The notes beneath the pieces were generated by a model. The model did not search any database. It had not been told where the DNA came from and saw only the letters and a list, made by a program, of their open reading frames with translations. A DNA stretch of 56,553 nt, counting the filler, from Circinaria calcarea (lineage: Eukaryota): the NCBI GenBank assembly GCA_051942165.1. It is 3 parts of 3 records of this genome, joined end to end, with 100 filler letters (N's around TTAATTAATTAA, not from the genome) between each part and the next. Parts side by side here need not be neighbours in the genome. Positions count along the whole stretch, not along the records: positions 37,771 to 56,553 come from JAVECS010000226.1; 2 more parts are not named here. One strand, given 5' to 3'. Below, in pieces: positions 24,801-54,055 of this stretch. Positions within the stretch are counted from its first letter, which is position 1. Each line of letters begins with the position of its first letter. The position numbers and the translations under genes were made by a program.

Positions 24801-25046
24801 TAAGTTTTCGTGAGATGACTGGGTCTGTGGCGCAAGGGTTTCGAGATCGAGTGGTGTAGCTGGCGCAACTGTGGGAGAAACAGATCCTCTGCGATGGCTT
24901 TTTCCAGCTTCGATATCTGATGTTGTATCATTCCGGCGCGTCTGCTCGTCGAGTTCCATGGTAGTAGTGTCCGTATCCGGTCTTCGAGCAGGGTGCCATG
25001 AACCAAGTCCCATGTTATTAGAGAGCCCTGATAGCGTATCCTCCAT
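18894..25046 (-). CDS. SEC16: COPII coat assembly scaffold Sec16
   Basis: SWHPARRP N-terminus, SFVDKSKGGYTSPYDLP, central conserved domain (DPLERWKGCPIFFFGFGG, FPGPLKSKSKKKD, LWGHAMLIS, WRETLSLIL). Intron 19609-19538 leads to C-terminal SWFGGW..ANLGEASSFKYDPILKKWVN..IDDLLG..RGYVDVMAK*. Start may be 25046 or 25208. Confidence 0.93.
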
Positions 25047-25511
25047 ATTCTCTATTAGGACAGATAGTGCTCCTACTGTACAAGGTATCAGCAATCTCGT
25101 AAGCCTATAGTCATGTAGATCACCCTCCAGTCCTTGTCTTGAGACTGGAAGAGATGGGGGCGAGGAAGTAACTCGCACCTTTACCACCCGGATCGCTGTT
25201 GAGATCATTAGAGCTTCAGCATGCTACCGACGAATCCTCCACGCCATCGCGATGCAACACTAAACAATAAACTCCCCGCAATTGTAAGTCTGAATGATTT
25301 CGAAAGAACGAGTATGATATTGCATGTGGTTCCTCGATTCGACATCGGTGTCATCTTGCCGGCTAAAGCTCGGACTTTTATTCACGCCGAGGACACCTAA
25401 ATCGGAGACAGGACCGGACAATGACAACCTCTCTCACGGCACAACGAACGATGTCTGTCTCTGACCACGCCGTTCGACCAAGTTGCAAGTACCACTTCCC
25501 TCGGCGAAGTC

Positions 25512-28500
25512 ATGTCGAGAGCTCACTTTTACCATCGACCTAACTCCCCCGACGTATCTGGAGAAGATCCCGATTCTGACCTCGAGCTGGATTTGCAAGA
25601 GCTAAGGCCCCATAAAGATGGTGGCAATGCGGTACATGACAATAACCGCTTACGAACCAAGCAACGTGATTTATCTGAACATGACACCCGGATACCGCTA
25701 CGGAAGCTGCGAGCTGGTGGTCTGAGGGTCTCCGGCCGGCGGACAAGGCAGTCTGATGGAACGAATGGGCAAGAGAACCAGGGAGCGGGTCGAGGTGATC
25801 TTGTGCAGGAATCTGTGGATGGAGAGGAAACGTCCGAGAATGACAATAGTACGGGGGATGCTACACCGTTGCTTAATTCAGATGGGCAGGCCAGGCCAGT
25901 GAAGCCCGGGTTCCGCTTGTTTGGAGGCCGTCTGAACGTTCCCCGCTCTCTATTCCAATGGAGTAGGCGTAGTGAATTGTATGAGCAAGGTTCGAACAGC
26001 AGTCACGAATCGCCAACCACGGGCTCACCACGAAGTATTAGTGTAGGCCAGGCTCCAGCAACTCGATTCCCACCTAATACAGTATCAAATGCCAAATATA
26101 CACCTTGGAGCTTCCTTCCACGCACATTGTACAACGAATTTTCTTTTTTCATTAATCTTTATTTTCTTGTGGTTGCATTGTCCCAAACGATACCCCCTTT
26201 GCGCATCGGATACCTGTCCACGTATATTGCACCTCTGGCGTTTGTTTTGATTGTTACCCTGGGAAAAGAAGCATTAGACGACATTGCAAGGCGCAGGAGA
26301 GATGCAGAGGCTAATAAAGAGAGTTATACTGTTCTCAGGGTGAGGGATACATCAAGTAACTCAACCCTGCGGACGAAAAGTATTCGAAGCGGGAAAAGTG
26401 CAAAGGACAATCGGAATAGGGCTTCTTCGACCGGTCAACGTCGTCTTGATGCTATTGAGGAGGAAGAGGAGAATGTTGGCTCGCTGGCTAGCCAGAAATC
26501 CCACATTGAGGTGGATGAGTTCCTCGTCAAGTCCCGAGATCTGAAGGTTGGAGACATTTTGAAGCTTGGGAAGGATCAAAGGGTTCCTGCGGATTTGGTA
26601 ATCCTAAAGAGCTATACTGCAGGGTCAGTTGCGAGCGATGCTCCTCCATCGAACAATACCCAAGGTCAAAGTCAGCCGATCCTAGTTGCAGAACCAACTG
26701 GAGATCCGCCAATATCTAATTCGACAGCAGCATCTAAAGGCTCTAAACAGCCTCTAGCATCTGATAATTCTACCCCTTCGGCTGACGGAGACGGGGTTGG
26801 GGAGACGTTTATCAGAACTGATCAGCTTGATGGAGAGACGGACTGGAAATTGCGTCTTGCATCACCGCTCACACAAACACTCGATCCGCGAGATTACCTG
26901 AGGTTAACAATCGCAGCGGGAAAACCTGACAAGAAGGTCAATGAGTTCATAGGTTCCGTGGAGCTCGCACCGGAAAGGAGAACTCCTGCAGATGGAGGAG
27001 AGAACAGCACCCACCAGACGCAACCCCGAGACCATAAGATTCTAACAGCACCTTTGACAATCGATAACACTGCTTGGGCAAACACAGTATTGGCATCTAG
27101 TGCGACTGTTCTAGCCGTGGTCGTATATACTGGCGCACAAACCCGTCAAGCTTTGTCCACGTCTTCATCGCGCTCTAAAACAGGACTCCTAGAGTACGAA
27201 ATCAACAATCTTACCAAAATTCTTTGTATTTTGACGGTGACACTTTCCGTCGTCCTCGTAGCACTTGAAGGGTTCAACAAAAGACCAGAACAAAAGTGGT
27301 ATATCACTATAACCCGCTTTCTCATCCTTTTCTCGACGATCATACCTATCAGTCTTCGTGTCAATCTAGACTTGGGCAAAACGGTGTATGCATGGTTTAT
27401 CGAGCGAGATCATGATATGCCCGGCGCTGTGGTAAGGACGAGTACAATACCTGAAGATCTGGGTCGGATTGAATATCTTCTTAGCGATAAGACGGGCACG
27501 TTGACGCAAAATGGTGAGTGAAACTAAGATTCTTTTGGACGATCTCACTAAGTGTAATTAGACATGGATCTGAAAAAGATACACGTTGGAACAGTTTCCT
27601 ACGCCAACGAAGCAATGGAAGAAGTCGCGTCATACGTCCGGCAGGGCTTTTCTAATGCTTCCTCTGCCGACCCCAGTCAGCCAACTGTACTCGTTAACCC
27701 TTCTTCGCTAGTGAATACGAACTCTTCAACTGGAGCAACGACAAGAACGAGGAGGGAGATTGGATCTCGAGTGCGTGATGTGGTTTTGGCTTTGGCCCTT
27801 TGCCATAACGTGACACCTACCACCGAATTTATAAATGGCGAAAGCACTACAGCATATCAAGCATCTTCACCAGATGAAATTGCTATTGTGCGGTGGACGG
27901 AGAGTGTAGGACTGCGGGTTGTACACCGTGATAGACACAGCATAGCCCTTCAGTCAGTCGATTCATCTCGGATAGCCGTTCGTGTCCGCATTCTAGAAGT
28001 CTTTCCTTTTACCTCGGAAGGAAAACGTATGGGCATCATCCTTCAGTTTATGCAAGGGATTGAGTCTTCAACTTCATCTACGACCGAGGGAGGTGAGATC
28101 TGGTTCTACCAAAAAGGTGCTGATACAGTCATGACGTCTATTGTGGCTGCAAATGACTGGCTTGACGAAGAGACTGCCAACATGGCAAGGGAAGGTCTCC
28201 GAACTTTGGTCGTTGGACGACGGAAGTTATCCTTTCACCAATACCAAGAGTTTGCCGCAAGCCACAAGGAGGCTTCCATGTCTCTTCAATCCCGCGATGC
28301 GAGTATGGCTCAGGTCGTTCGGGAATATCTTGAGCACAATCTGGAACTCCTCGGCGTTACTGGCGTCGAAGACAAACTCCAGAAAGACGTCAAACCCTCC
28401 CTCGAACTTCTCCGCAATGCCGGCATAAAAATCTGGATGCTGACAGGCGACAAAGTGGAAACCGCTCGCTGTGTTGCCGTCTCCTCCAAGCTCGTCTCGC

Positions 28501-29582
28501 GCTCCCAGCACATTCACGCAATCACCAATCTCCCTTCACTCACCCGCACAAACCCCCAAGCCGCCACTGACGCCATCTCCTTCCTAAACTCCAATCCACA
28601 TTCCACAGCCCTTCTCATAGATGGTGACTCCCTCTCCCACCTTCTTCTCCACCACCGACTTCCCTTCATCTCCCTCGCTGTCCTTCTCCCAGCTGTAATC
28701 GCTTGCCGCTGCTCCCCGACCCAAAAAGCAGACATTGCCCTTCTCATCCGCGCCCACACTCGTAAACGAATCGCCTGTATTGGGGACGGCGGCAACGACG
28801 TGTCGATGATCCAAGCTGCCGATGTCGGTGTCGGGATTGTAGGAAAAGAAGGTAGGCAAGCCTCTCTCGCTGCCGACTTTTCCATCACCCAATTCCATCA
28901 CCTCACCAAGCTCCTTGTCTGGCACGGCCGCAACAGCTACAAGCGCTCCGCCAAGCTCGCTCAGTTTGTCATCCACCGCGGCCTGCTCATCTCCGTCTGC
29001 CAGACCGTCTACAGCGTATCTGCGGGTTTCGAACCGCACGCCCTCTACCGCGACTGGCTGCTCGTCGGCTACGCGACTGTCTATACCATGATGCCCGTCT
29101 TCTCCCTCGTACTGGATCGCGACGTCGATGAGCGCCTCGCCAACCTTTACCCAGAACTCTACAAAGAACTCACGCCCGGCTCGTCACTCTCTTATCGCAC
29201 TTTTGCCATTTGGCTACTTGTCAGTTTCTACCAGGGCTGCGTCATTCAGATCTTAGCCCAGTATCTCACGGGCTCCGTTACTTCGCCGCAGATGGTTTCC
29301 GTCTCCTTTACCGCCCTCGTGGTCAACGAGCTCGTCATGGTCGCGGTGGAGGTCACGACGTGGCATTGGATTATGCTCGCTTCCCTGCTCGGCACCGCCA
29401 CTATATATGCGGTTAGCATCCCCTTCCTCGGCGGCTACTTTGATCTAGCATACGTGTGGAGTTTGGGCTTTTTATGGCGTGTGGTCGCGATTGCGGCGGT
29501 GAGTCTGGCGCCGTATTATGTGGGGAAAGTGGTCAGGCGGACGGTAAAGCCGCCGAGTTATCGGAAGGTAAGGGGCGTTTGA
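25512..29582 (+). CDS. NEO1: P4-ATPase phospholipid flippase, Neo1/ATP9 class
   Basis: NAKYTPWSF, TDQLDGETDWKLR, IPISLRVNLD, SDKTGTLTQN (phosphorylated Asp), WMLTGDK, GDGGNDVSMIQAA, PPSYRKV end; one 48-nt intron at 27514-27561. Confidence 0.95.
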
Positions 29583-34402: not shown

Positions 34403-37402
34403 TCACCGAGTGGCAAAGGCCGTTACAGTAGAGTTCTCATCGAAAACTGATGCTAAATTCCTCCCCACGTGTAGAAAAAGGTCGATGACTCCATAAACCA
34501 GTAAGGCCATCAAGGATGCTACATATCCGGTTCTGAGGACTAGAGCTTCGACGAAGGTCAAACGCAAGAGCCTAGTCGCAGTATCCCACAATATTACAGT
34601 AGGGCAGTTGCGCTTGGTCACTTTGATCAAGCTCTCGAGAGGCTGGAAAGCAAAAGCCACGGAAACTACATTGTTGGTTAGAAGTAGATTGCATATAAAG
34701 ATAATGTGAAGCTTACTGCGCAGTTGCGACCACATCCTGTCGGTTCGAGTGGGCACACGGGTGCCACTCTCCTTGCCGCTTTTATTCTCTGAGCAGAAAA
34801 TGAGGCCAGGCTGGGAACTTGTAGTGGACTGGAGCACGGCCAGAGTTTCCTGATCATCATCGGCGGAAACAAATCGCTGCGGTGGTTGATACGGCCAGAT
34901 ATAGAGCTTGGTGGTGGCCCGAGGATGCGGTGCAGATACGAAATCTTTTGCCATGTGAAAGGCGGTTCGACCGCAAGGATCAGCTCTCATGGAATCTGCA
35001 CCGTTTTCTATCAAAAGTCTGGCACATGAAGCACGACCGAGATGTGTCGCGAACGTTAGCCAAGTATACTTGCCGACCACATCGCCCTTTATTGACACCT
35101 GTTGGCCGCCGAGAACCTTGCCGATCGGTTCATTTCCGTTGATGGGGAAGCCGCTGCGGTAAAAATACTGCAGTATCTGTGGTATATCTAAAAAGATGAT
35201 TGCTATCAGGTAGCTGTTAAGCAGTTCCTGGGGCTTACGTCCGATGATGTTGTGACGGTGCAAAATGAACCTCTGGATTAATCCATCAGCAGCGGCAGGG
35301 AAGTATGTCCGAACGTCGTCTGTCCTTAGTAAAAGGGAAAGTAGACCTTCTTTATTTTCCTCTAGATGTCGCGGATTTGTGCGATTCACCAGCTCCAATA
35401 TCATTTTCTTCCTCGACGCTGGATATTTACATTGCGGAAGATAATTCGGATGACGAGACAGATATATAAGTGCCCATGTCGGACAAGCACCGGCACCAAG
35501 CAAAGCCTGGAACGTATCGAGGTTGCCCCATTTGACAGCTTTACTAAGGTAACTCAATCGAAGCCAGGGCATTTGTTCGTTACTTGATTTCTCGTCCAAG
35601 TCAAATCCTGCTCTTATAAAAGGGGCAATCATATCCTGAGTACCCCACTTGCAAACAACCTTTAAGAATTCAACTCTATCCCTAGTGGAGGCCTTCTGCA
35701 CCTCAGAAACAATGACATCAATGTTAAAGGCTGTGCCTAAATTAAGGTGGACTTGCGAAGCGCAAAAAACTGATCTGTACGATGCAAAATACTTTTGCAG
35801 TGCTTTGCAAAACTTTTCATCTGTATGCTGAAGAATGCCCACAAACCATCTGTCGATGGGCAAAAGATCGTTGACGGTCCAAGGCTCCGATTGATTGAAG
35901 AGATATTTAGATATACAATCAAATGTGGCTCCGTGGCGCATAATAAGCGTTAAGATTGTTCCCCAGTTACTGTGTTGCCAGAAAATGTTGCCCCCATAGG
36001 CTAGGAAGGAATCTAGCGCATCTTTCAACTGCGGTTGAGACTGTCTGGCCGCTGATATGAGCACCTTGGCGTGGCACGCGGTAAATCTAGTAACACGTCC
36101 TAAGTTGACATACTAAATGATGAATATTTGCGCTTACAAGGGGTCACCACTGCCACAACCCTCTTTGAGTAGGCGTTTATACATCGCGAGAGCTTCACTA
36201 TTCATTTCCCCTACTCGCGCAGTAAACGCCTGTATAAATGATGAGCTATCTTTGCGTTCACATGGGCTTGCAAACTAACCTCAAGTAAGGAAATTGGTCT
36301 ACGGTGAAAGATATGGTCTGTTGGCCGCGCAAGGCCCTCTCGAAAGAGTCTTTGCAATTCGAGTACATCGAATCTGGCTATCGCTGCTTTGAGATCCTGA
36401 CTCGGGTTGTAGCGTATGGGTGAGAGCGATAGAGTGATCCTAGGAAGCTTGCTAACTGTTCTATAGATGTGAACATCCCAGTGAATCGCAAGAGATGAGA
36501 GCCATCGTGGTGGAATGTATGTAAAGGTATGGTGAATGATAGGCCTACTCGATCCTTTTCCAGCAACAGTTGTGTTGCTAGACACTACTTTACCCAATAG
36601 CATCAGATCAGTATGGCTCCTCTGATAGGTAGAAGGCAAATGAAAATCTCTGGCCACCACTGTCTTTCCAATATGTCCTCTGCGCATCATAACGGTATCG
36701 ACTCGGAGATATCCTTGCAAGTCACGCAGACGATCTTCTATTCTTGCAAAGGCGCCTTGATAGAACTCTCGCTGAGCACTTTGAGACAAATTAAAAGCTG
36801 CAAGATCAGAGTGGAGGACTCCAAGACCCGCGTCAGTCTTGGCTAGAAGCTCGGCCGTTTCCAGTGAGACTTTATAGAGCTTTCGGCTTGCAGTAATGAC
36901 TTGTCAGACGTGTTCTGTACTACGGCATCATTTCGCTCACTTACCTGGTCAATATGCCCACAAGAAATGTAAGGGTTCCTACATGAGATGAGATCAGGTA
37001 TTGATACCGTTGAACCCTATCCTCTTGAAGAACATAACGGATGCGTAATGCGAGATATTTCCTCCGAGAAGCGGGGGCCAATAACAAATCCTTCAATTTC
37101 AGCATCGAGGACTCAAAATCGCCCAAATCCTGATGCATATAGTGTACGGCCGACGTGAATAGCGTTCCCATGCCCAATGCGGCATACTCGGAGGGATAAT
37201 CTCGTATTCGCTCTTGGACTTCGGAAAGGAGACATTCAAACTCCTTCAGCTGCCTATAAAGGCGCCTAATATCTTCCGGTGCGTCCTTCAACTTGCTTCC
37301 GACATTGTACAGGATTTTAGAGCTGTCGATCACTAAAGCCGCGAGCGTAGCCAAGCTGGCAGCGAAGCCGATGAAGGCGACGGAGGTGGACAGAGGATCC
37401 AT
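34403..37402 (-). CDS. HeLo-like (fungal STAND N-terminal) domain + ankyrin-like repeats + C-terminal hydrophobic segment, ~930-946 aa
   Basis: MDPLSTSVAFIGFAASLATL...KDAPEDIRRL N-terminus. Exons 37402-36945, 36886-36280, 36229-36138 and 36086-34403 splice in frame (optional in-frame 51-nt intron 34716-34666). ANK-like SYLSKAVKWGNLDTFQALLGAGA and TWLTFATHLGRASCARLLIENGAD..D..GRTAFHMA. Confidence 0.78.
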
Positions 37403-37670
37403 CGCATCCGAATGCTTGAGATAGAGGTTTCATACGCAAGGTGAAAGATTAAAAAAATAATGAGTCAGTTGTAATCAGGGTGGAAGCTGCTGCCAAAGGA
37501 GCGGGATCAGGCACCTGACCTACCGCCTAATTAGTGGTATGGTACAGCCCCGCTGCATGTGAGTTTAACCCTGCACGGTCTTGTTTCAAGGCAGACACCA
37601 CACCGTTACACTCTCATATTATAAATATACAAACAATTAGCAAATTTCATGATATAATATAATATAATAT

Positions 37671-37770
37671 NNNNNNNNNNNNNNNNNNNNNNNNNNNNNN
37701 NNNNNNNNNNNNNNTTAATTAATTAANNNNNNNNNNNNNNNNNNNNNNNNNNNNNNNNNNNNNNNNNNNN
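37671..37770. other. Artificial contig linker (44 N + TTAATTAATTAA + 44 N)
   Basis: Same 100-bp design as 18787-18886. Confidence 0.97.
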
Positions 37771-39341
37771 TGCCCATAGAAGAGAGCTTTCGGAGCATAA
37801 ACCTAGCTTCCTTTCCCTCCCTACTCAACCGGCTATGGAGTGCTAGTGGACTCTCATTCAAACCCACTCTCCGTTCCTGGTCGTCGAAAGCAATGTAGAG
37901 GGCATAATTCCGCCAATAATCCTGTATGCCATACGATTTTAGGACAGCGGGTAGTATTTTTTCGCAGGAGTCTGCTCCATGGACAGGAAAGTTCTTAAAA
38001 ATCTGCCCGGTGAATGACGGCGACGAAGTACTTTCTGAAGACAGCACTGGTTTTGGGGAATCTGGAGGCGTTGCAGGCATATTTTTGTGTACTGCTGTGA
38101 CTCTTCCGAAAGTTTGGGTTCTATTAGGAGATCTTGGTGTGATTGGAGGTGAGTGTACTACCGTATCTTTACTGAAAGAGAATGTGCTAGGCTTGTTGAC
38201 GCGCCGGGGCGAGCTTGGCCACCTCATCTTATCTTGAGTTCCTGAGGTATATCGAATAGCTGGCAATGTTTGCGGAAGATCCTCTGGATACACAAGGACT
38301 TCACCTTTCGGTCCCACATCAAGCTGGGCTCTTGAATCTAACTCTGTAACCCTAGATTTATGCATCTGATCCCAACGTCCTCCTTGGTCTGTCCATTTCC
38401 AGAGCAAAAGAGACAGGCGTCTAGTCTCTGGAGGAGAAGTTGAAGCATTCTCTCTTGGTTGAGAACCTAAGTCTAGACTTGCATTCGCTTCGGGTATGAG
38501 ATCATGAAGCCAGACTGATGTTCGTCTGTTCTCCCTAGCACTAAGACTTGATGCTGGTCTAACAGAAGTCCCATCCGCCACATTAGAATACGCCATAGGG
38601 TTAACGACGTAGTCTTCCAAGGAGGGTGGTTGAGCTTCCGCCAACGTAGTGCAGGACTCATTCGAATGATCCGATTTCTTGTCAACATGATCCATATACT
38701 CGCCTTGTCCGTTCTCTAGCTCTTCGAGCCTCTCTACTGCACACTTCTGCGCAATGACCAGACTTCGAGTCATGATTTCTTCCTGCTCATCCTCTAAGTC
38801 GGTTTCGGAGGTTGAGATCCTGCAACATGCTATCAGTACGTGATAGGTGGTTGATCAAGATTCTTTCAGCCCAGACCTACCTTCGCGCCGATACTCTCTC
38901 TGCAAATTCTAAAGTCGTCAACATAATGTGCAGAGTGATTTTGCATGACTCCAATGTCGTCCTATGCATCTGTACTTTATCACGTTTCAAGACCCATCTC
39001 AAGCGTCCCAAAATGTCTATCGTCGTCTCGCTGGAGGAAGGCTTGCTTTTGATAAGGCTGTCGAAAATAGCTTGCAGCTCATTGAAAACCACTTGACATT
39101 GCTCGAGTATCTCCTGCGTCGTTTCGATTGCGCTGATTGAGTACCGACGGTCTTTTGCCTTGGCCAAAGTCCTCTCGAGTTGCTTGAGGACAGCGCAGAA
39201 TAATGATATCTCGGTCCCAATTGAACGTACCTGCGAGCCAGCAGAGCCAATGCTGTTTCCGAAGTCAAATAGTACAATAGATAGCTTGGCGCCTGCTCCA
39301 ATGATTCCGATGATACTGGCGATTGCGCCCAGTTCTGCCAT
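37771..39341 (-). CDS. HeLo-like N-terminal domain fused to Ste50-type Ras-association domain; stop codon lost in gap (>=503 aa)
   Basis: MAELGAIASIIGIIGAGAKLSIVL...RLRWVLKRDKV..LESCKITLHIML; a 61-nt intron 38880-38820 keeps frame; C-terminal IFKNFPVHGADSCEKILPAVLKSYGI..WRNYALYIAFDDQERRVGLNESPL..LSREGKEARFMLRK. Confidence 0.8.
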
Positions 39342-39954
39342 CTTACGATCATATGGACGTAAAAGAGGAAGACTGTAGACGGTAAAGAAAGTATATCGTT
39401 CCTAATAGCAGGATATGATCTCTTTCGACTTCCCTAGGTACCTAAGTGGCAGTGCAGGTTAAGGGAATTCCAGAGTAGGAAAAGCCGCAGGCTGACTGCA
39501 TGAACCTTAAGGGTGGCGTACTAAGCCGCCAATAACAAAGCCGCGCATTCGATGTTGCCCGCCAATACCTAACCGAAATGGCATTCTCAGTCTGTCGTCG
39601 AATGATTCTTTAGATCAATCTTGGTTCGCAGCAAAGACTGTTTATATGTCATAGCCAGATATCCACCGCGATTCAAAAGGTGTTGGATTGACGGATTCGG
39701 TCGCTCAGCTCACTGCGGCTCTCTCCCCTCCCCTTATGAAGCATGCCCTATTACAAATATTGTCCATATCAAATCAACCTGCTACTAGAGCTATGTATGT
39801 GAGTGCATCTTAGTTTTAGCATATGTAGTACATGCAGTACCTTCGTCTCGGTGCTTGGAGATCCTGAGTGTAGACGTTATGCAAAATTGCTTGACTGTGA
39901 TAAATTGAGCTCTTGGAACTTATAAGACATCTGCGAAGCCTCAGTCCATAAGCG

Positions 39955-41403
39955 TCATCTTGTGGCAATGTTCTTCGAGGATTTGCCCCCAAATTTTTCA
40001 ACTGCTTCTTGAATGACCGGCTTCGACAGATCAGGGACACTCTCCGCACTTCCATTTACAGGGTAAATGCTAAATCGAGTGGGAGCCTTCATTAGTCCAG
40101 GCCAAATATCTATTGGTAAAAAGTCGCCTTGTTCGTGCTTGAAGGCTTCTCTGTTTGCAACCTCTTCATCGCACAGTTTATTCAACTTGTCCACGGCGTC
40201 CTGGAGCACTTTCGCCACCTTCACCTCAACGGACTTCCTTCTACTAACCTCAACAATCAGATTATCATATGCTCGGATAAACCCTTCGTAGAAGTCTCGG
40301 AGATCCTCTAAATCTTCCATGCGCTGCTCAATCTTTGTCTTTTCTTCGTCCCACCTGAACAGAAAGAGATGGCTTTGTGTGGTGTAGCTCGGTAGTCGAC
40401 TTGCCAATTTTTCTAGCAACTTGACGGCTTCGATAGTTCTGGCAGACTCATCTGCTAAGTGTTCGTTGTATTCGCCTATACGTTCAAATCGTGCTTCCAT
40501 GTTTGAGCGGCGGTCCCTGATTTCTGATACAACATCCTCTACTTCGTTCGAATCCCTTTCCAGCACCTGGAGCATATCTCGTTTCTCTTCTTCACTGATT
40601 GATTCCGCTGATTTGTCGGCGTGAACCATATTTAATCCCAGGTCCACTCCCTCAGGCATGTCGGCTGCAATTCTCTGTGCAGCTGCGTTACCTCCTTCCA
40701 TATGTTTAATGGCGGTAACGCAGAGATCGAAATGATTCACAAGGCTTTCTAAGTTGTCCGCCATCTCCTTTGCGTGCTCTTCCATGTGATGTAGAGCTAT
40801 AGGTATAGGCAGAATAGGGACTTGTATACTAGCCAAGCCGCGATCCTTACCCAGCAAGCTTTTGATGCTGGAGACTTCTCGCTCCATAGCTGCATTCGAG
40901 TTCTCGTATTCCTTCCTTGCCTCTCCGGTAGCATCAATGCTTTCCTTGATCATTCCCAACAAAGCCTGCACGCCAGTCTCATCCACAAAATCGATAAGGC
41001 TTCTCCTTTCTTCACCCTCGGGTCTTAGTTTGACTTCGACCATCGTACTTCGCAGTTGATTAAGAGTCCTTCGTAATCTGCTCTCGGCCGTGTCTAGACC
41101 CTTTATAACTGACTGAAACTCCGCAACACATTCTTGAGCCACACTCTTTGAATGATTCTGTACCATTTCCAGGATCTCAATCTGAGAGAAACTCTCATTC
41201 TGCAAGAATTTCGTGCGTGCCACTTCAACTGTAGTAGACTCAAGTGACTGGCGCGTGGCCGTGACGATGTCATTGGCACGATAGACATGATCCACGGAAG
41301 ATAACGAACGTTTAGCTGCAAGGAGATGGGAGACCAAAGCTTCGAGTGAGGGAAGCGAAACATCAGGAGCTTGGGATGGGAGACTAGATGTGGAAGATGC
41401 CAT
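39955..41403 (-). CDS. ATG17: Autophagy scaffold Atg17
   Basis: LVSHLLAAKRSLSS, RSLIDFVDETGV, LESLVNHFDLCVTAIKH, AYDNLIVEVSRR, GDFLPIDIWPG; intronless, 482 aa. Confidence 0.92.
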   Translation of the reverse strand: MASSTSSLPSQAPDVSLPSLEALVSHLLAAKRSLSSVDHVYRANDIVTATRQSLESTTVEVARTKFLQNESFSQIEILEMVQNHSKSVAQECVAEFQSVIKGLDTAESRLRRTLNQLRSTMVEVKLRPEGEERRSLIDFVDETGVQALLGMIKESIDATGEARKEYENSNAAMEREVSSIKSLLGKDRGLASIQVPILPIPIALHHMEEHAKEMADNLESLVNHFDLCVTAIKHMEGGNAAAQRIAADMPEGVDLGLNMVHADKSAESISEEEKRDMLQVLERDSNEVEDVVSEIRDRRSNMEARFERIGEYNEHLADESARTIEAVKLLEKLASRLPSYTTQSHLFLFRWDEEKTKIEQRMEDLEDLRDFYEGFIRAYDNLIVEVSRRKSVEVKVAKVLQDAVDKLNKLCDEEVANREAFKHEQGDFLPIDIWPGLMKAPTRFSIYPVNGSAESVPDLSKPVIQEAVEKFGGKSSKNIATR

Positions 41404-42163
41404 CCGAGCGATGTTTCAGAGCCAGAGGACTAGCCGATCAGAATAGGGTTTGCAAAGATGCGTAATAGAGAAAGTGATGATGTTCCCTCTACTCTCGTAT
41501 GACGATATAAGGTAAGGAAGTGGACGATAGGGATCTTCTCACAGAATCATAGTTGACGTTCCACAAGGTCTCCTGCTCACCGAAGATTAGTCTCTTCACA
41601 GAGTCTGTATGCCTCACCATTCCATGTAGATCTTGAGCCATTCCCAGCAACATCTTCTAAGGAAAGGGATGATTCTGCGGTAGTCGTCAAGATATATGGA
41701 GGTAGTGAAGGGAGATCATCGCACAACACGAGAGCGTTTCCGGGTCTGCCGCGGTACCGTGCAGCTCCGATCGTGTGGCGGCCGCTAGTACTCGGCGACT
41801 CCGCTTATTTGTTAGCGTAAGCAAGCCAGCAAGGGTGGCTGAATGAGGAGACCTGGAGAAGTTCTCCAAGGTCGAGGGCAAAGGAACAGAAACGGGCAAA
41901 ACCATTCTACATCATGCCATCTGAATACTGCATTCAACGTTTCTTGTTCTACGAACCTTTGCGACCAGGATAGTACCACGTTTGGATACTGCGAGGGTTT
42001 TTTCTTTGTTCCTTCAAGCTAAATCGAATCGCACGCCATCGATTGCGAATATTTGACCGATGAAATCCCCTCTGTACCCGTTGCCTCTACAAATGGCCTA
42101 GGACCTCTAACCCGATCGTCTTTGATTCCGCATTTACCGAATTGGTATACCCTTCTTCCCAAG

Positions 42164-44371
42164 ATGGGTGACTATCTAGGAAGCCCTCCGAAACGGCGGC
42201 GACTGTCACTGCTTCAAGCGGGCCTACCTCTCTCTTTTGGCAGCCAGGTTATCACGGAAGACACACGAAGCCAAGGGTCAGCTACGAGAGGGAGCAACAA
42301 AGATAGGATAAACGAAGGGGATGCCACTATCACCATTTCTTCGACGTCAAAGCTTGCTGGTCAAACCGTTGCCCCCTTTCTTGCCAAGCATATACCAGAC
42401 CAATATGCGCCTCTGGGAGGTTCTGGCATTTCCAATGGCGCTGCAGCAAAAGATTCAAATACCAAGTATTGCTATCGGCATCGACCTGACCTGAAATGTA
42501 GGAGACAAGCCAACGAACCTTCTATGGACCAGCTACAACATGTACGGGCTATCCTTCCTCAAGGCTTTAGGCGTATCTAATGTATTGTATAGGAGTTGGA
42601 GACGTTATCACAGGGCGATCAGCAAGGCATTGCGCATGTCTGGACGCTTTTTTCTGCTGCACCATCCAAGCACCGGAACCTGATGCTTCAGGGTATCCTT
42701 ACCCAATGCTGCTTTCCACAACTCTCATACCTTTCTACGCATGTTCGGGAGCTCATCCGAATCGATTTTCTTACCGCTCTACCCACGGAACTAGCTTATA
42801 AAATCCTTTGCTATCTCGATACGACTTCTCTCTGCAAAGCTGCCCAGGTCAGCCAGCGTTGGCGTTCTCTTGCGGACGATGATGTTGTCTGGCATCGGAT
42901 GTGTGAACAGCATATAGATAGAAAGTGCACTAAATGTGGATGGGGTTTACCATTGCTGGAAAGAAAGAGGCTTAGGGCTTCCAAACGGCAGATACAACTT
43001 AGGGCTACGGGCCAAGGCTTGAACGTTTGGTCGCCGAACATCACGCCGTTCCCTGAACGCACCTCGCAGAGCCGGTCCAGTACGGCGGAAGATCACTCCG
43101 ATATTGACAGCGAGTCGAATTCGAATACCACTCTCAACCCAACCAAGAAGCGCTTACTGGCAGATCATGCTCCGAAAATTCCGACAACGTTTGCACAGTC
43201 AGAGTCTGTAGAGATTGAAGAATCTTACTTCAAACCTCGTTTTCGGCCTTGGAAGGATGTTTACAAGGACAGGTTCAAAGTAGGGTCAAACTGGAAACAT
43301 GGCCGGTGCTCGACCAAGATCTTCAAAGGTCACTCCAACGGTGTCATGTGTTTACAATTTGACGAGCACATCCTGGCTACTGGATCCTACGATGCTACCA
43401 TCAAGATATGGGACATCGAGACAGGCGAGGAGATTCGCACGCTGAAAGGCCACACCTCCGGCATTCGCTGTCTTCAGTTCGACGATACTAAGCTGATTAG
43501 CGGAAGCATGGATACAAGTTTAAAAGTATGGAACTGGCGCACTGGCGAGTGTCACTCGACATATACAGGCCATAGTGACGGCGTTATTAGCTTACATTTT
43601 GACTCGACAATACTTGCGTCTGGTTCTGTGGATAAGACGATTAGGATATGGAACTTTGAAGACAAGTCTACATGCGTTCTCCGAGGGCATGACGATTGGG
43701 TCAATGCCGTTAAAGTTGATTCCGCATCTCGGACTGTATTTTCGGGTTCGGACGACTGCACCGTTCGGTTATGGGACCTTGACAGAAAATCTACAATCAA
43801 AATCTTCAAGGGTCATGTAGGACAGGTGCAGCAGGTCCTTCCCTTGCCGCGTGAATTCGATTCCGAAGAAGGGGATGCAGACGACAAATCGAATGATCAA
43901 GATGACTCCGCGTCGGCCAGCAGCTCTCTTGACCTTGCCACTACTCCATCGCTTCCGGTAGCAAGCCCCTATGGTGCCAACTTCACCTCTTGTGGTCGTT
44001 CTCTTCCGCCACGCTTCATGCTTACCGGGGCACTCGACTCTACGATTCGACTGTGGAACGTGTCGACGGGCAAGTGCTTACGTACCTTCTTCGGTCACAT
44101 CGAGGGCGTTTGGGCTTTGGCTGCCGACACATTACGGGTTGTAAGTGGCGCAGAAGATCGGACAGTCAAGGTATGGGATGCACGAAGTGGTAGATGCGAA
44201 AGGACATTTACCGGCCACCTTGGTCCCGTCACCTGTATCGGGTTGAGTGATAGTCGAATGTGTACGGGAAGTGAAGATTGCGAGGTCAGGATGTACAGCT
44301 TCAAAACCGAGGGCAGACGGAGAGGTGGTGGCGGAGAGGAGGAAGACGATGCGAATAGCGTTCCGTCATGA
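42164..44371 (+). CDS. sconB: SCF F-box/WD40 sulfur-metabolite repression regulator SconB/Scon-2/Met30
   Basis: [24 protein letters not shown]-box [47 protein letters not shown], multiple WD40 repeats; intron 42542-42592; ATG at 42164 preferred over TTG at 42053. Confidence 0.93.
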
Positions 44372-46037
44372 TGAGATGGATCTCCCTGTGTATATTGTTT
44401 GGTGGAATTTCTGAATGGCGAAACGATGATACCCGGACGCTAGCTATGCATTGATTGGAGCATATTTTGGGTTCGTGTATATACGGGATCAAGCATGTAG
44501 TTGATACCTCAAATCTACAAAGTAGTTAACCTTCCGGCATCCTCGAGTGTCTGCCATGCTCGTGTGGGGTGAGCAGAAGTCGTTGCTAAAAATAACAGTA
44601 TGGCACTGGAGGACCCCTCACACTGGAATCATGGCTTGTCGAATCAAGTAAGACCATCAACGTATGTATAGAATGCTGCATAAAAGACTAGGTAGGGGCG
44701 CCCCTCATACGCTGATTGTGATCTCATCGGCAAACGACTTTTGCCCACCGACCTCGAATATGGTAAATCAGTATCAGCTGGTGCCCGCTCCAACCTTCGG
44801 CACTTCAGACATGATATTCCGTAACCCCGATTTCTTGCTGGTCCTTCACACCCGGACGATCGGTCATGCCTGGAGGTGGTTTCACAATGCATGATGATGG
44901 ATTTCGAGAGTTGGCGTTGTACATTCGAAACATCTGCGCCTCAATCTTCTGACGTTTGTCCCCACTCTCCTCGATCCATTCCTCCGCTATTTCCAGGAAC
45001 CAGGAGCGGGAGGAGGATCTAGACGGATTCCTTCGACACGTTGTCAGACGCCCTATAGGTAATCTCCCCCACTTCTTATCCTTCACCGTCTTAAGGATTA
45101 ATCCTGACGCTCTGAGAGGCCGCTCGTGCGACTTCAGGACTCTTGGACTCCAAGCCACGCCTCCAAAGCAAGCGGCGTAGGGCTCCACAAAGATATTGGC
45201 AGACATGGGTCAACACCCTCATTCTCTCAAGGGGCGTACGTATACCATGCAGCAAGGACACACCCGAGCAGCACGTGGAGACTGCTGGCAACTTTCATTG
45301 CTCGGATTGACCATGCCGTCGAGGCTTCCCGCCCAATCGCCGCTACATCGTCGTCTCCGCTAATGCATGCGAAGTGAATTGACAAATTGTGGAAGTCGGT
45401 CAAGCGGACTGAAGATTCCCACCAACGGCAAGTCATTCGGGCTGCACCACCCGCAAAACCGTACCCCTCCCACCTCGAGCTAAATTTGCTTCGAGTAAAA
45501 CGATAAGCTTCAGCGGTCCTGGATCGTCGTCGCTCACCGTTCGCCCTTCGCTCCCTTACCGCACTAAAAACGACGCCAACAGTTCCAGCCGCATGGGACG
45601 ACAAGGGGGGTTTCGGGAAGCACATGGTCTGACTCTTACGTGAAGTTGTGTTTCGAAAAACATTAAAGAAGCTTGCTTGCTCCTCCATCAATTGTTATTT
45701 CTCCATCATCCAACTCTTGTTGTACATTGTCAATCGAGTTGCTTTACTGTAGCACTGCCTGGCATATAATAACCCCGAGTGCTGTTTGTTATCATTATCC
45801 TCTGCTCTCCTCTATCTTACTCCTCGACATCTCCCAACTCCGCAGCTACCACCATAACTGTTTGCGAGAAAATCACCCTGCATCTAACCATTCCATCTGG
45901 ACCTGCCTGGGTACCTCATATTCGGAGGATTACCGCCTCTTTGCGGATTGGTGCATCGAACACTTGGACAAACAGCAAACGTCACCTCTACCTACATTCC
46001 CCGAACCACTCAGTTTGACACTTCTCCCGCCTGAAAA

Positions 46038-46505
46038 ATGTCGTCCACATCTTCCATCTCGGCAGAGTCTAAGCCAACATTGAACCGAGCCAACACCGAC
46101 GCTCCCCAGACACCATTTTCCCCTGCCTCTACTACCACATCTTCGTCACCTGGTTCCCCAAGACCACAGTATGCCCGGATCACCGCATCGGAAACTACCA
46201 TCTTCGCTCGTATTCGCACTACTCGCTCGCGCAGTCGGTCACCCAACCGATCCCACTCCACCTCGACCCCAGCCTCCTCGCCGACTACGCCATCAGAAGA
46301 GCGTCGCCAACCTTATCTCCACCTCCGCAGTGACTCTGGCACCTCCAACGCTTCGAGGGGCCGCTCACGGAGTCAAAAACACAAGTCCGGTACAGTTATG
46401 CAAGTGGGACGTCATAGTAATGACTGGCTTTTCGGGGGCTTCAGCTTCACGGAGGCAGTGAGGGGACTGCTTTCACCAAATGACAGTGGGAATGATAGCA
46501 ATTAG
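46038..46505 (+). CDS. Small Ser/Thr/Arg-rich hypothetical protein with C-terminal GRHSNDWLFGGFS motif
   Basis: 155-aa ATG ORF in good context (AAAATG) after a pyrimidine-rich leader. The motif resembles one I recall from small conserved Pezizomycotina proteins (not verified). Confidence 0.6.
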   Translation: MSSTSSISAESKPTLNRANTDAPQTPFSPASTTTSSSPGSPRPQYARITASETTIFARIRTTRSRSRSPNRSHSTSTPASSPTTPSEERRQPYLHLRSDSGTSNASRGRSRSQKHKSGTVMQVGRHSNDWLFGGFSFTEAVRGLLSPNDSGNDSN

Positions 46506-49500
46506 AATATCGGGTAGTGTTGCAACGACGACATATACTTAGGGAAGTGAGAATGTCGGTCGTCTATGATGAACAGCTGGTAGGGGGAGTCGGTGCAGGA
46601 ACACAATGTCTCTTCTTCTGACAGAACTAATAAACACCGACCGGCGTTATTCGCCTAGACACGCTTGAGCTGTGGTCTCTGGGGTTTGGCTTTCAATGGG
46701 GAGTAAGCAGGGGCTTATTGTGTGGAGCCTTGGAAGTAAACAATCTTTTGGATATCATTCTAACTTTTTTTTTATCTCTGCGTTACACATACCTGATGTT
46801 GATGCAAGAGAAAGGTGCTTATTAAGTGGCTCGCACTCCGCTATGTATATATGATAGATACCCAATTTGCGACTCTGTCATTACGCAATACAGATTAACT
46901 GGCGTTGGAACTAAATCTGTTTCATGTATGGCTTTCCCAGCACCCTCTAAACTTTTTCTGGACTCTCTCTATTTGGTGAGATAGATCAAACGATACCATT
47001 CCTCGAAGCCGTGCGCAGAGTTTCCAAAGTCAAACCGCTGCAGCCTATACTCCAGAAATATGAGCGTATAAGAGTATTACGAGAAATAGTCGAGTCTGAA
47101 GAACCGTATGTCGGTTTCAAAGAATAAATAGATCTTGATACTATTATTATTATATTGAGCTCGAAAGCCTTAAAAGAAAAGAAGGGTCAGGAGCCGACAG
47201 CCGAAGAGCTAATCAAATACTATTTATTCCAGGCAGCGTGGACCGGCGGCAGTGGGCAGATCAGCCCTGATGTGGCTTTGTCATCAAGGCTCTATACTCC
47301 GATTAGTTGTGAGCCCATCATCTAAGTTCCTGGTTCTAGAGATTATTATTACTAGACCCTGTTCCTATTATCTATCAGAACGAAGAAGACAATTGGACGC
47401 GATCAAATCAAGCATCTTCAACCCCATACCCTTCTCTTAGGCCCTCTTTAAGCTGCTCGTTAGAGAGTATATTGAAAGGGACGCCCAATGCTGACACTCT
47501 CCTGGAGGTGGAGATCTCGAGCCCTCCAAGATGCAAGTAAGAAGCTTGAGCTCGTCATCGCAACTTCACCTCGGGGTATACTCAGCAAAGGGGGTTTGGC
47601 TGCAGCAGCAGCACACGGTTCCCGTACAAGAGAATCAAGCATGACCTGTCAACTTTACAAAAGGCTACGGACATCTAAGTACTATTACTTTAAGAGCTTA
47701 TCTCGAGACAGAATATATACGGCTATTTGGCTAAGGAATACTCCCCTAATGCTACATCCGAACGCGGTACGAAACTTAGAAGCAGCTGCGGCAGGTAAGA
47801 GACAGTAGCTACCTAGCAATCGAGAATACATTTGTACCCCTTCTTTTCCGTCCAGGAGGCCTACTTATCGGATACAATCCCTCGACTTTGTCCGATTTCT
47901 CCGGTGTACTCCTTAAATCGAGAATACATAAGTACGACATAAGATGCTGAAGCCGGGAAACTGCGTGATCAAGCTTGATGTTTTGGATGAGTTCTGAAGA
48001 AGTTTTTCATGGCGATTCACTTCTGATAATGGCAATATTGTCCTCGAGAAGGCTATACTCCCAGAAGTGCTGGATGTTAAGGTCTATCCGGGTGGACCTC
48101 CTTTCTCAGGCCTCACTTGCTCACCGTTGTCCAAGCAGCCTATCTGGGAGCTGCATTTGGCTCTTTTATGACGACTGCTCTCCTTGGAAGGAATACGAAG
48201 GAAGAACTTGTGTGGCAGCAAAACCTGTTTCAGTAAGGAAGTCTATGCGCAATTTCAACTGGGAAATTTATTTAAGAGAGGGATTCTGTGAAGAGAAACC
48301 TGAGTCACGGAAAGTCGTTTATGCTAGGAGCGCTTCGCCTGAAAGTCAAATCTATCGTCATCTGGCGCATGTCTTCTCCACTGACGTTTCTACTTCCCTA
48401 TAGTAAAGGGGTAAAGCATATATAAGCATCCGCAAGCGTGACGGGAAATGTCTGATCACTGGAGAATATACCGAATGAAGCAGAACTGACATCCATAAAA
48501 TGCACTATGCAAAGGAAATGCCAAGGCGGAGATCAAGATGGAGATTTCTCTTCGAGTTCATTAAAGAGTAAAAGCCAATGCAATCCAAATTTGTTCGTCG
48601 TCTTGCTCCTTGAAGCTGATAATCGCAGATGGAGATAAGGAGCTACATTTGTTCACCACCTACCCTCTTCCATCTCCTCCTCCCAGTGGTCATGTAGGCC
48701 GAGGCACCAAGATCTTTATGGCCATCGGTGCGCTTTAAGTTCAGCTGTCATCATGTTAAGAAATTCGAGACTCTCTGGGGCGCCGCACTGCTCTGGTCCG
48801 GACTATATACAACAAGAACCCTGCTCAACAGAAAGATTGTCAATGGAGGACGGGGCTTTCCTTTCGAGTAGAAGAACACGACTTACGGTTGGATTCATTA
48901 TAAAATCATCGAAAATTGCGTTTCCCTGCGATTAAGTTGCAAATCTATCGAATATGCTTTTCCAACCTAAAAGACCTGACTAGGAGGACGAAGTGGAAAC
49001 ACGCAAGCCTGGTAGCCTAGGTCGTATCTCATGATATGGATTGGGAGTATGATGATCCAGACGGAATCAAGTGGGAACGATGGTGATATGGAATATCTGT
49101 ATCAAGACAATGTAGCCAGCATAACTATTGAGTTCCGCAGCCGAAAAGAAACATCTTGCAAACCAAGAGCCAGCGGAAGCTACCGCCAGAAAAAGGCGAA
49201 GATCAAGGACGCTAACATATCGGATAGACCTAGATCCAAAGGCCTTGGGAATGTTGACTTCAATAATTACTCATAATATACGATTGGGATCCAATATGAA
49301 AGATCATAGTAAGATTCGAAAACTGACTCGGCGTCATTTCAATCTTCTACTCATCGCAGCTATTCTCCATGATGAATATAAGATAAGTTTTGGACTCTTG
49401 GGGTATGGCCACAAAGAAATTCTCCGTGAAAGTCCGGGGTAAGAAAGCGAAGACGACATCCGTTGGTTCCAACTCTCATGGAAACTCCAACCGAATCTTT

Positions 49501-52500
49501 GTTTTTCCGACAGTCAAGACAATTGTTATACGATAGCCCTCCCACTTGATCAACTGACCGGTCACATGCGTTGTTGGCTGGGAGGCCGATTTACCTAGAT
49601 TGGAAACTTGAAGAGCACGTCGACATGGAGCGGCTCATGCACCTATCCCTAGGTTGTACGAAATCATATTAGCTTGGATCCGCGTTGCGTTCTCCTTGAA
49701 CTGCTGATACAAAGATGCAAAAAAGACTCACCCGATTCCATTTTTATCGCCGGGGATAAGGTCATGCGAAGAGCACATACAAACCCTTGGTAGATAGGCT
49801 ATGCCAACGTTTCAGCTGTGTCTCAGAGCCTCTACGCTCTCAGAACTTAAGAAACGGTTAGACCTTCGGTTGAGATCAATCCGCTATCATCACGCTTTAT
49901 AAAACAAGTCAAGGAGTGTAGACGGGCTCTCAGGGCTTTGAATATGCTCGATGAAAGTAAACACGGTTTCAAATGAGGATAAAGGGCGGATGGCTAGAGA
50001 TAACTCGAAAGAGAAGACAAGTTTCTTGCAACAGAGCAGATAATGTGGTCTCAAGTCCAGTCAGGCCTCCAAACCTGTCGAAAGCTATGTTGTATATTGC
50101 CCTGTTAGCATGCTGTCACTGCCATCGTCGAAAAGAGGATGGAAAACAGCAGCAGCCAGCGCCATTTAATCTTTGAGATGCTATCAGTTGGCTAAGAGCA
50201 ACTATACATTGGAAGTTGACTCGAGGCCATCTCAATATATCGCGAAACGCTCCTTCCATGCTTGCTTCATTGGCGCAGGGAAGGTATTCAGCTGAGACGT
50301 TGATTTTAAGATGTGCTTGATACCGCCTTATATATAAAATGCTGCAACCCGGATTCTCTTTCGTTGGAATCCAGAAGGCAATCAGTCTTGCAAGGGAATC
50401 AAGCTTGCAGAGATCTCCCCAACGCAACGGAAACTAGACAGCTTCCCGGACTGAGTCTTGAGGTCGTTGCTGCTGATACAATGCCAACTGATAGCCAGGC
50501 TCCAAACCAACAGTAAAAGAGGGAGGGGGGCCCCCGAGGATAGCGTTTGGTGCGTGCAGAGTTAAAGAAATAAAGGACAAGGGGAAGCGCTAATTCTTAG
50601 CGCGCCAAATGCTTCTTTTTCCCTCGAATGGCGGGGATACCCCTTCTCTAAAGGCGCTTTATATTTCTTAAGTATGTGCACCTCCTGCTCCTTGCGTGTT
50701 CGCTGACAGCTCCGAACCCACCGACTCGAGCAAGAGGGCCGTGCCAAGCCCAAGGCCCTCAAGGAGAAAAAGGTTAGGGCCTTGGAGCGTATTGCCCTAG
50801 CTAGTGAGCGGCAGGTGAAGATAGCGCTTCAAGTTGTAAGTGCACTGGCTCCTCGCACCTACTGTTAACTAGCTGTCGTCTACTATTTATGTATGCCGAG
50901 TACAGTTTAGCCTCAATATGGGCGTATCTATCATAGAATCTTATAAGTTTCTTTCTATACTAGTTGCTCAAGAGATACGATAAGTTTATTTAACTTGGCA
51001 GCAGTTTCACTTTCAAAAAATGCAAGAGCGTTAATCGACCTATGAGTTTTATTTTTGTTTATCTAAACTTTACTAACGTGTGTCGGCTAAGCTATCGAAG
51101 CCCCAGTTACTCCCATAACCTCAAGTTTATATTATATTACTTCCGACGCTGCCCTCGACACCCTACGTTGGCCCTCCCTGTCACATCAGACCGATGATGA
51201 AAATGAAAAGGAGAAACACTTTGTCCCGGATACTATCAAAGATCTTTGCCGATATTGTCTACGCTCTTATAACAATTATAAGAGCGAAAGATTAAGTTGG
51301 AAACCAGTTAAGTTTCTTTCTACTGGGAACATCCTTAAAAAACCAATTACCCTGACTCTTGTACCAACCTTACTTATATCAGGGTGAAAGCTAATAGTGT
51401 ATATCTCTAAATTTCTTACAATCAACAGAGAGCGGAAGAGTGCAGCAAGGATACAAAAGCACGAGGAGAAGGTGGCTACGAAAATGATACAAAGAAAGTT
51501 GGAAAGGAATCAGGCAATACAAAAAAGCTGCTGAATATTTATTAATAATTAGGTGTCTTGTAAGTTTTGAGGGAAAACTTTTTACCTTTTTCGCATCGAT
51601 GTTTCGATCTCTATAACATCATGGAGGAACTTCTCACCTGGAATTCACTTCACATTGACTCTCATCACAGCCCACCACGCCTTCGAACTCGAAGCATCAG
51701 GATATCAATTTTAAACCTCAAATACCGTTACAACTTATTATATGGAAAAATTCGAGGCATTCGACTATTCGGTTCAGTCGGTTAGCGACAGCAATGCTTT
51801 CAAAGGCGGCGGCATACCACCATCTCCTTTTCCATATCCATCATCTCTTTCACCATTATCGCCAACAGTAGTTCCCGGAGCATAGTACCCTTATGGGAAC
51901 GACAACAAAGCTATTCTGCATAAATTCTTGGTCTTAGTAGCTACACACTTTAGCACCGCTTCGATAGAAATAAAGGGTTTCGAAAGGAAAAAGAACATCA
52001 CATTGGTCAGGAGCAGCGCAACATATTGATATATAAACCGTATATTGCAATCAGTCGCTCCAACATCGTACCCCTAAAGGGGAATAAGGATAGGCGTTGA
52101 AGCATGTCTCAAGACCAACCAACGGCTTCCGGACCACTACAAAACGTTGTGTCAAAGAAAAGTACATATTATAATGAAAAGGAAAGGGCCGATTTTGGCC
52201 TCTTAAACGGCGAGCATTCAGTGATTGCTCAGTCTACAATATGGGTCTTCGAGACTCAGCGACAGGAAGAAGAGAGGAAATTGGCCGCGGAAACTCTGTG
52301 GAGTTGGAGGAGAGGGCAGCAACAACACCAAAGTAGAGATTAGCTGAACGCAGTGACGCTCGAAATAAAAATTATCACCACTGCCAGAGAATACCTCGAC
52401 ACAGCCATACACTGGCTTTAAGTACGAGAGATTCATATACCGTAAAGCCAAGTACCTTAACGAAATGGATATTCCCGGAAGAAAATAAAATTCCTTCATG

Positions 52501-52882
52501 CACTTTTGTCACTTACCGCAGTGCCTTTTAATGCAAACGGGAGCAATCCACCGAGAGAACGAAAACAGCTTAGTCAAGGAGGACGGCTTATAACTATTAC
52601 AGGCTGAACAATAACCTGAGAAGAAAATATCTGAAACTGGGTTTTGGCACACTGATCAAAAAAGCTTCCTCAAGGGCCAGCAGTTTGTCACACCATCGAG
52701 TGTCGAAGGAACTGGAGAATTTAGGGTGGTCGCGTGGTGATTAAGTGGACAGGGGACAAATCTGTATACAACTAGCTCCCAGCCATAAGAAACTCATGTC
52801 AACACTGGATAAGTTAGCCTAAGGCATTAGGGGAAAGTATGAACGTTAATGGCAAAACGATGGGGAAGAATTCAAAAGAGGA

Positions 52883-53929: not shown

Positions 53930-54055
53930 GCTACCCCAACCCCCTCAATTTAGGCAATTTCAGGTAGCACAACGAGTGCCTCCACCAGAACCGCTACCAT
54001 AACCCCCTCAATTTGGGCCATTTGAAGTGACACAACAGGTACCTCCACCAAGACC
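53930..54055 (+). repeat. Two-copy 63-bp tandem repeat encoding a Pro/Gln-rich 21-aa unit
   Basis: GCTACCCCAACCCCCTCAATTTAGG...CCTCCACCAGAACC followed by GCTACCATAACCCCCTCAATTTGGG...CCTCCACCAAGACC. Confidence 0.8.

Follow-up and report, generated by a model that had tools for sequence, protein, structure and literature searches.

HeLo-like domains have so far been understood as the killing end of signalling by fungal nucleotide-binding oligomerisation domain (NOD)-like receptors (NLRs) and amyloids, and Ste50 is a core adaptor of three pathways of mitogen-activated protein kinase (MAPK) signalling. We describe here a spliced, expressed two-exon gene of a filamentous ascomycete, Circinaria calcarea, in which a HeLo-like domain is fused to a Ste50-type Ras-association (RA) domain. 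The gene lies in a 56,553-nt window, the whole stretch of DNA analysed. HeLo and HeLo-like domains are described as pore-forming effectors resembling MLKL, and the known SesA/HeLo-like domains either precede NACHT or NB-ARC or belong to free proteins with an amyloid motif at their end (PMC9815663). Dyrka et al. observed that the signatures of sesA and HeLo-like domains overlap, and united the two (PMC4986451). The RA domain of Ste50 is described as being without the canonical N-terminal strands; its partners are Cdc42 and Opy2 instead of Ras, and its role is in recruitment to the membrane (PMC6589780).

Gene structure and domains of the encoded protein

The window consists of three assembly pieces of ~18.8 kb each laid end to end. 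The gene occupies the very start of the third piece (37771-56553), where the preceding artificial joiner truncates it at 37771. The reading frame is open throughout both exons (Table 1), and exon 2 starts at 38819 in the frame that an initial annotation of the locus had predicted. The start of exon 1 fits the family-conserved MAE.G N-terminus, and the same methionine begins the alignment of 46 N-terminal domains (N-domains) of the family. The initial annotation had placed the end of the gene at 37771. We found that this position is the end of the assembly piece; the frame is still open there, and homologues are longer, with 12-27 further residues after the RA domain. The contig boundary cuts the gene ~10-25 codons short of its end, so that it is nearly complete, with its 3' end outside the window.

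Four public runs with close relatives of the stretch (X1, DNA; X2, X3 and X4, RNA) were aligned to the window, and their contigs, RNA and DNA, extend past 37771. A 1011-nt contig from the metatranscriptome run X4, ~92% identical to the window, covers 38351-38818 and 38880-39363 and skips exactly 61 nt; read on the plus strand, the gap has CT..AC ends, corresponding to GT..AG for the gene. The DNA contig of X1 covers 37771-39397 with the 61 nt retained. The RNA contigs of X2 and X3 stop short of the intron, and the splicing evidence from the runs is that of X4 only. Because the X4 RNA contig lacks exactly 61 nt, the exons are co-transcribed in a close relative. Furthermore, the NCBI-annotated Trapelia coarctata homologue P0007 (MCJ1248300.1) is joined at the same residue as the predicted junction, and P0008 has a 17-residue insertion there, as expected from a gene caller reading through the intron. 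The junction was also reached by 39 of 45 exon-1-only fragments from other assemblies, with 31 of the 39 ending at most 20 residues beyond it and 13 of the 39 one residue beyond. The evidence for splicing in C. calcarea itself is good though indirect, and the intron and the co-transcription of the exons in the initial annotation are upheld. A gene that is incomplete at a contig end, in a window stitched from three pieces, could be thought to be two separate genes, a pseudogene or an assembly chimera, but this explanation is hardly credible and largely refuted: a single RNA contig (X4) spans both exons with 61 nt removed, both exons lie within one piece (37771-56553) with the frame open, and the N-to-RA order is shared by 29 more of the fetched proteins besides the annotated one of Trapelia.

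The C-terminal domain is a Ste50-type RA domain, as had been proposed. Exon 2 matched Pfam RA PF00788 with E 9.5e-9 (36.2 bits, cut-off 21) over profile positions 17-90 of 93. It was identical at 46 of 94 positions (49%) to the RA domain of P0145, a protein of 493 residues with SAM_1/SAM_2 and RA (E 8e-25), and its median identity to 58 Ste50 RA domains was 52%. The family profile matched sequences named 'protein kinase regulator Ste50', 'MAPK adapter protein MST50', 'BcSTE50' and 'protein STE50' with E of ~1e-42 to 1e-44 (~1e-43 for Ste50/MST50), and the RA domains of P0007 and P0149 were identical at 48 of 73 positions (66%). The Pfam match started at profile position 17 in the window protein and at 14-18 in six SAM+RA proteins, a late start that fits the published account of a Ste50 RA domain without canonical N-terminal strands. 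No SAM family was found by Pfam at E<=1 in either exon, and none of the 30 relatives with N-domain and RA has one, so that the reported absence of a SAM domain stands. The RA fold was examined on the homologue P0007 only, in whose model the RA domain has a predicted local distance difference test score (pLDDT) of 95-97 and resembles solved RA domains (template modelling score 0.63, normalised by target, against afadin RA1 with HRAS; Z 7.6 for afadin and Z 7.7 for the PLC-epsilon RA). Against PDB sequences, the sole match of window exon 2 was afadin at E 0.37, and a canonical Ste50-like protein matched generic SAM domains only and no yeast Ste50 chain. A word search restricted to the RA domain had 10 candidates and yielded no more than one near-copy and the fragment of the window itself.

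Exon 1 matched two Pfam families, SesA PF17107 (E 1e-7, 32.5 bits, cut-off 26.3) and PigL_N PF17111, formerly Helo_like_N (E 3.8e-7, 30.1 bits, cut-off 27.2). When the 46-sequence family N-domain alignment was compared by hhalign with an ordinary PigL_N-type domain, which the adjacent assembly piece encodes at its end, the probability was 92.3% (E 5.6e-7, 134 columns). By contrast, HeLo proper (PF14479) gave no Pfam match at E<=1, and hhalign of the same alignment against the true-HeLo protein P0147 gave a probability of 0.1%. The N-terminus is thus HeLo-like in the SesA/PigL_N sense, which retains one part of the initial description, and not HeLo proper.

The first helix of the N-domain is hydrophobic and glycine-rich, with a hydrophobicity within the range of membrane-spanning segments (Table 1), and is conserved across the 46 family N-domains. 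Exon 2 contributes a fifth long helix that completes the helical domain: it corresponds to residues 154-198 in the P0007 model (pLDDT >90), PigL_N matches in relatives, P0011 and P0012 among them, reach ~residue 200, and a T.SL..A.Q pattern is conserved at the start of exon 2. The AlphaFold2 model of the exon-1 product, made with 46 relatives, was a helical bundle of high confidence (pLDDT 92.3, predicted template modelling score (pTM) 0.85), and the full-length P0007 model, made with 50 relatives, had five long helices over residues 2-198 with pLDDT >90 and an overall pTM of 0.60. Among the 50 best structural matches of the bundle were MLKL (4btf, Z 11.1, root-mean-square deviation 2.4 Å over 100 residues; 6ux8, Z 10.6) and AtMLKL3, together with the plant NLR N-terminal helical domains of Rx (Z 11.3), MLA13 (Z 9.8) and Sw-5b; the comparison tool cautions that for helical bundles a Z below ~13 lacks specificity. 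The modelled fold is consistent with the MLKL/HeLo-like class, and is not proof of it.

The two domains are connected by a linker that had been called low-complexity and S/P-rich. The composition bears this out in moderation (S 12.4%, P 10.7%), but two family-conserved motifs lie inside it, and the P0007 model has partly ordered helices at both (pLDDT up to 88-92). The RRxS of motif 1 resembles what we take to be a basophilic-kinase site.

Family, public annotation and genomic setting

With a profile made from two full-length homologues together with both exon products, 2339 cluster representatives were retrieved at E<=1e-3; the number was 1054 at E<=1e-10 and 101 at E<=1e-30. All three counts include N-only and RA-only matches. 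Because the profile finds 1054 representatives at E<=1e-10, the architecture is no chance pattern. Local profiles were run on 291 fetched proteins, the window's own three excluded; N-domain and RA occurred together in 30, SAM and RA in 58, and N-domain and SAM in 0. The N-domain+RA proteins come from five classes of Pezizomycotina and are all unnamed or misnamed. The initial annotation knew of no characterisation of this architecture, and our full-text literature searches, whose coverage leaves out most subscription journals, brought up no paper in which a HeLo-like or SesA domain is combined with an RA or Ste50-type one; the architecture is nevertheless not a one-off, given the 30 proteins above.

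The C-terminal part of the family is variable. Among the 150 best family representatives, 148 were scanned with Pfam, and none of these 148 relatives had a NOD module at E<=1e-4. N-domain and linker were followed by SH3 and WW in P0015 and P0073, by SH3 in P0040, by SH3 and two RA in P0023 (whose longer cluster mate P0158 also has the N-domain), by two RA in P0014, by RA and WW in P0093, and by synaptobrevin, a v-SNARE, in P0126. These comparisons indicate that N-domain+RA is one form of a broad, modular, fast-evolving family that sits in public databases as hypothetical proteins. The best PDB matches of the relatives' SH3 domains were generic (GRB2, beta-PIX, p47phox). A copy of Sho1 or of another component of the high-osmolarity glycerol (HOG) branch was considered for these SH3 domains and is unsupported, the PDB matches being generic only.

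A different arrangement was seen in P0147 (578 aa, unnamed, environmental; cluster mate P0159, 738 aa), which has HeLo PF14479 (E 1.8e-23), a Spa2-homology domain (SHD; GIT_SHD) and a Ste50-type RA domain, and is a second case, independent of the first, in which a death-type domain has been fused to a Ste50-type RA. The Protein Atlas clusters nearest P0007 (scores 0.89 and 0.87, to be taken as leads only) were ascomycete proteins with PigL_N and the ubiquitin-like ULD_2 PF22893. A HeLo-like bundle with a beta-grasp domain may be a wider theme, the RA fold also being ubiquitin-like.

Named members come from a Helotiales/Mollisiaceae species, Oidiodendron maius, Phialocephala subalpina, Diplodia intermedia, Elasticomyces elasticus, Fusarium nematophilum and Trapelia coarctata, and Cladophialophora carrionii is a named member with the SNARE form. 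They are labelled 'hypothetical' or 'Ras-associating domain-containing protein', except the Trapelia protein. That protein, P0007 (MCJ1248300.1), is publicly called 'Adaptor for signal transduction', the name of the true SAM+RA Ste50 of Orbilia, Xylographa and Loxospora. Since P0007 has a HeLo-like N-domain and is without SAM, this is a misnaming, probably an annotation transfer via the RA domain alone. Canonical SAM+RA proteins were found in other Lecanoromycetes, namely Xylographa, Loxospora, Lecanora helva and Trizodia, and none from Trapelia coarctata was among the matches listed.

Table 1. Positions of the gene, its parts and other features in the 56,553-nt window
Feature	Position	Strand	Details
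Exon 1	39341-38881	-	ATG at 39341; residues 1-153 and two bases of codon 154; helices 1-4 of the bundle
First helix, hydrophobic, glycine-rich	39267-39323	-	residues 7-25; 19-residue Kyte-Doolittle mean 2.12
Intron	38880-38820	-	61 nt, phase 2; GT..AG; GTAGGT...TACTGAT...CAG; TACTGAT branch-like
Exon 2, incomplete	38819-37771	-	predicted frame, still open at piece end
Fifth long helix	38711-38818	-	~36 residues from the start of exon 2; closes the N-terminal helical domain
Linker motif 1	38492-38533	-	ENRRTSVWLHDLIP; RRTSVWL; family consensus R.S..L (family alignment)
Linker motif 2	38360-38422	-	LLLWKWTDQG; family consensus LL..WTDQ (family alignment)
Ste50-type RA domain (ubiquitin fold)	38002-37787	-	residues 273-344; Pfam RA PF00788
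ATG17-like autophagy scaffold	39955-41415	-	E 5e-89; true neighbour, directly upstream on piece 3
F-box/WD40 protein	42593-44371	+	true neighbour on piece 3
Open reading frame (ORF) MDPLS..., HeLo-like gene start	36941-37429	-	end of piece 2; PigL_N E 2.4e-6
Ankyrin-repeat ORF	34403-36112	-	downstream of the piece-2 PigL_N ORF
Housekeeping ORFs on other pieces	19572-25223	-	fungal gene
	25425-29582	+	fungal gene
	14465-16066	-	fungal gene
	6103-7611	-	fungal gene
	8344-9606	-	fungal gene
Artificial joiners	18787-18886; 37671-37770		N44-TTAATTAATTAA-N44, both identical; no strand; non-biological

Genes on the two sides of a joiner are not real neighbours, because the window is made of separate pieces joined artificially; the true neighbours of the HeLo-like/RA gene are those on piece 3. 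The HeLo-like gene start at the end of piece 2 is a second, different gene, with the ankyrin-repeat ORF on the same strand, and it is near the HeLo-like/RA gene only through the joiner artefact. The housekeeping genes on the other pieces were Sec16, a P4-type phospholipid flippase (two ORFs), UTP15, a Sec24-like zinc-finger/trunk protein and a fungal-specific transcription factor.

RA divergence and possible functions

RA identity was compared among single-RA proteins matching at least 65 RA model positions, after removal of RA-only fragments, proteins with tandem RA and two near-copies of the window protein. Among 58 Ste50 RA domains the median identity was 0.87 (10th percentile 0.81; 1653 pairs), raised somewhat by near-duplicates in this set (the Orbilia and Xylographa clusters), whereas among 45 family RA domains it was 0.47 (990 pairs). 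Family RA domains had a median identity of 0.62 to Ste50 RA domains (2610 pairs). For the window RA the medians were 0.52 to the Ste50 RA domains (58 proteins) and 0.44 to the other family RA domains (44 proteins). As far as identities indicate, the family RA domains diverge fast from a Ste50-like sequence that is itself nearly constant, a pattern that would fit one ancient capture or several alike.

Tentatively, and short of calling it probable, we favour a putative conditional membrane-perturbing or cell-death effector that is docked at Ste50 partners and latched by its linker. The RA domain would take the protein to the plasma-membrane partners used by the Ste50 RA, in yeast Cdc42 and the Opy2 tail, and docking there would bring the HeLo-like bundle to this part of the membrane, or release it there. 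In the manner of MLKL and of its own relatives in the NLR/amyloid cell-death systems of fungi, the bundle might then act on the membrane, with the conserved linker motifs holding it inactive until a trigger arrives. The protein would thus be wired to the Ste50 node as an effector, and may also compete with Ste50 for partners.

Several observations weigh against such an effector. The Pfam scores of the N-domain exceed the cut-offs by just 3-6 bits, Foldseek gave no match at E<=0.001 for the exon-1 and P0007 models, and a PDB profile search with the N-domain gave none below E 0.02. The Z-scores to MLKL and the plant NLRs fall within the range of unrelated bundles, the top match being an unrelated microtubule protein (Z 12.6). 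Pfam found no NOD module (NACHT/NB-ARC) in the protein and no amyloid motif was recognised, and there was no NLR-like gene among the scanned ORFs, the downstream side of the gene lying beyond the piece end. Conserved linker motifs and SH3, WW and RA modules are equally expected in an ordinary signalling scaffold. Transcripts of the gene occur in natural communities, so that a lethal activity, if there is one, has to be latent. To these are added the near-duplicates in the Ste50 set and the RA tree (96 domains, 88 columns, quick method), which left 61 of 90 inner branches open.

It is quite possible instead that the protein is a benign signalling adaptor from a family of polarity/MAPK scaffolds, whose N-domain serves oligomerisation or peripheral membrane attachment while the RA domain (SH3, WW or SNARE in relatives) binds pathway partners, and which tunes or competes with Ste50 without being lethal. 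Every C-terminal module in the family is a classic adaptor domain, the conserved linker motifs include the RRxS-like site, the gene is expressed in environmental RNA, no link to an NLR or amyloid was seen, and the structural match of the N-domain is unspecific, with the IncA, THATCH and talin bundles scoring equally. Set against this, the N-domain belongs by sequence to the SesA/PigL_N group, a group characteristic of the N-termini of fungal NLRs (PMC4986451), the named members come from scattered taxa with no standard model species among those listed, and an RA identity of 0.47, against 0.87 for Ste50, is a better fit to an accessory, fast-evolving role than to a core scaffold. The same RA domains might be read as bait. 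In a strict integrated decoy or guard, the RA would copy Ste50, and an effector that an antagonist directs at Ste50, or the loss of Ste50 partners, would trigger the fused executioner without a NOD. Family RA domains are indeed nearer to the Ste50 RA (median 0.62) than to one another (0.47) while evolving fast, bait-like modules are swapped on a constant N-domain, and the HeLo+SHD+RA form has arisen independently (P0147). We nevertheless consider a strict decoy unlikely: independent divergence off a slowly evolving Ste50-like ancestor would account for the identity pattern equally well, an effector targeting Ste50 was not met in the literature examined, the protein has no NOD or oligomerisation switch, and the relatives' SH3 domains match generic SH3 (GRB2, beta-PIX) and no particular fungal hub. 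A broader version, which we hold to be doubtful, is NLR-independent surveillance, in which an MLKL-like executioner would be fused to interchangeable baits copying polarity/MAPK hubs, namely the Ste50-type RA, SH3, WW and v-SNARE, with SHD+RA in a parallel true-HeLo version. If this were so, an antagonist that tampers with the hubs, or their mis-engagement when cells fuse, would directly set off membrane attack.

A widespread, fast-evolving family that fuses a HeLo-like domain to a Ste50-type RA, and exchanges this RA for other adaptor modules in relatives, points to one of two possibilities: signalling hubs may have a direct path to membrane attack, or the 'death' fold may serve signalling as a membrane anchor, a non-lethal use so far unrecognised. 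Either would alter the reading of the many fungal HeLo-like genes. In addition, the results flag an annotation error, in that family members are being named as the Ste50 adaptor.

Comparison with described systems

Ste50/Mst50/STE-50, the SAM+RA adaptor of a Ste11-type MAPK kinase kinase, shares with the window protein the same C-terminal RA subtype, placed at the C-terminal end after a long disordered linker. The window family differs from it in being without SAM (0 of 30 members), in having a SesA/HeLo-like bundle as the N-terminus and in an RA domain that evolves much faster. Because there is no SAM domain, no link to Ste11 is expected. P0147 resembles the window protein in combining a death-type N-terminal domain with a Ste50-type RA, and its RA stood among the Ste50 RA domains in the tree; unlike the window protein, it has a true HeLo N-domain without detectable similarity to the family N-domain, and an extra Spa2-homology domain.

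The SesA/HeLo-like domains (PF17107, PF17111) of fungal NLRs and their amyloid-controlled partners are like the N-domain in sequence, in the helical-bundle model and in the hydrophobic first helix, but the window protein goes on, by way of the conserved linker motifs, to an RA domain, and has neither a NOD nor a recognised amyloid motif. With MLKL and the plant NLR helical domains the modelled bundle is comparable, and the logic of an N-terminal membrane-acting bundle held by a C-terminal regulatory part would be similar by analogy; there is, however, no sequence similarity, the Z-scores are within helical-bundle noise, and the regulator would be RA and linker rather than a pseudokinase or NB-ARC. 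The analogy with plant integrated-decoy NLRs is loose, because the window protein has no NOD/NLR part: it is without NB-ARC/NACHT, and Pfam finds only SesA/PigL_N and RA.

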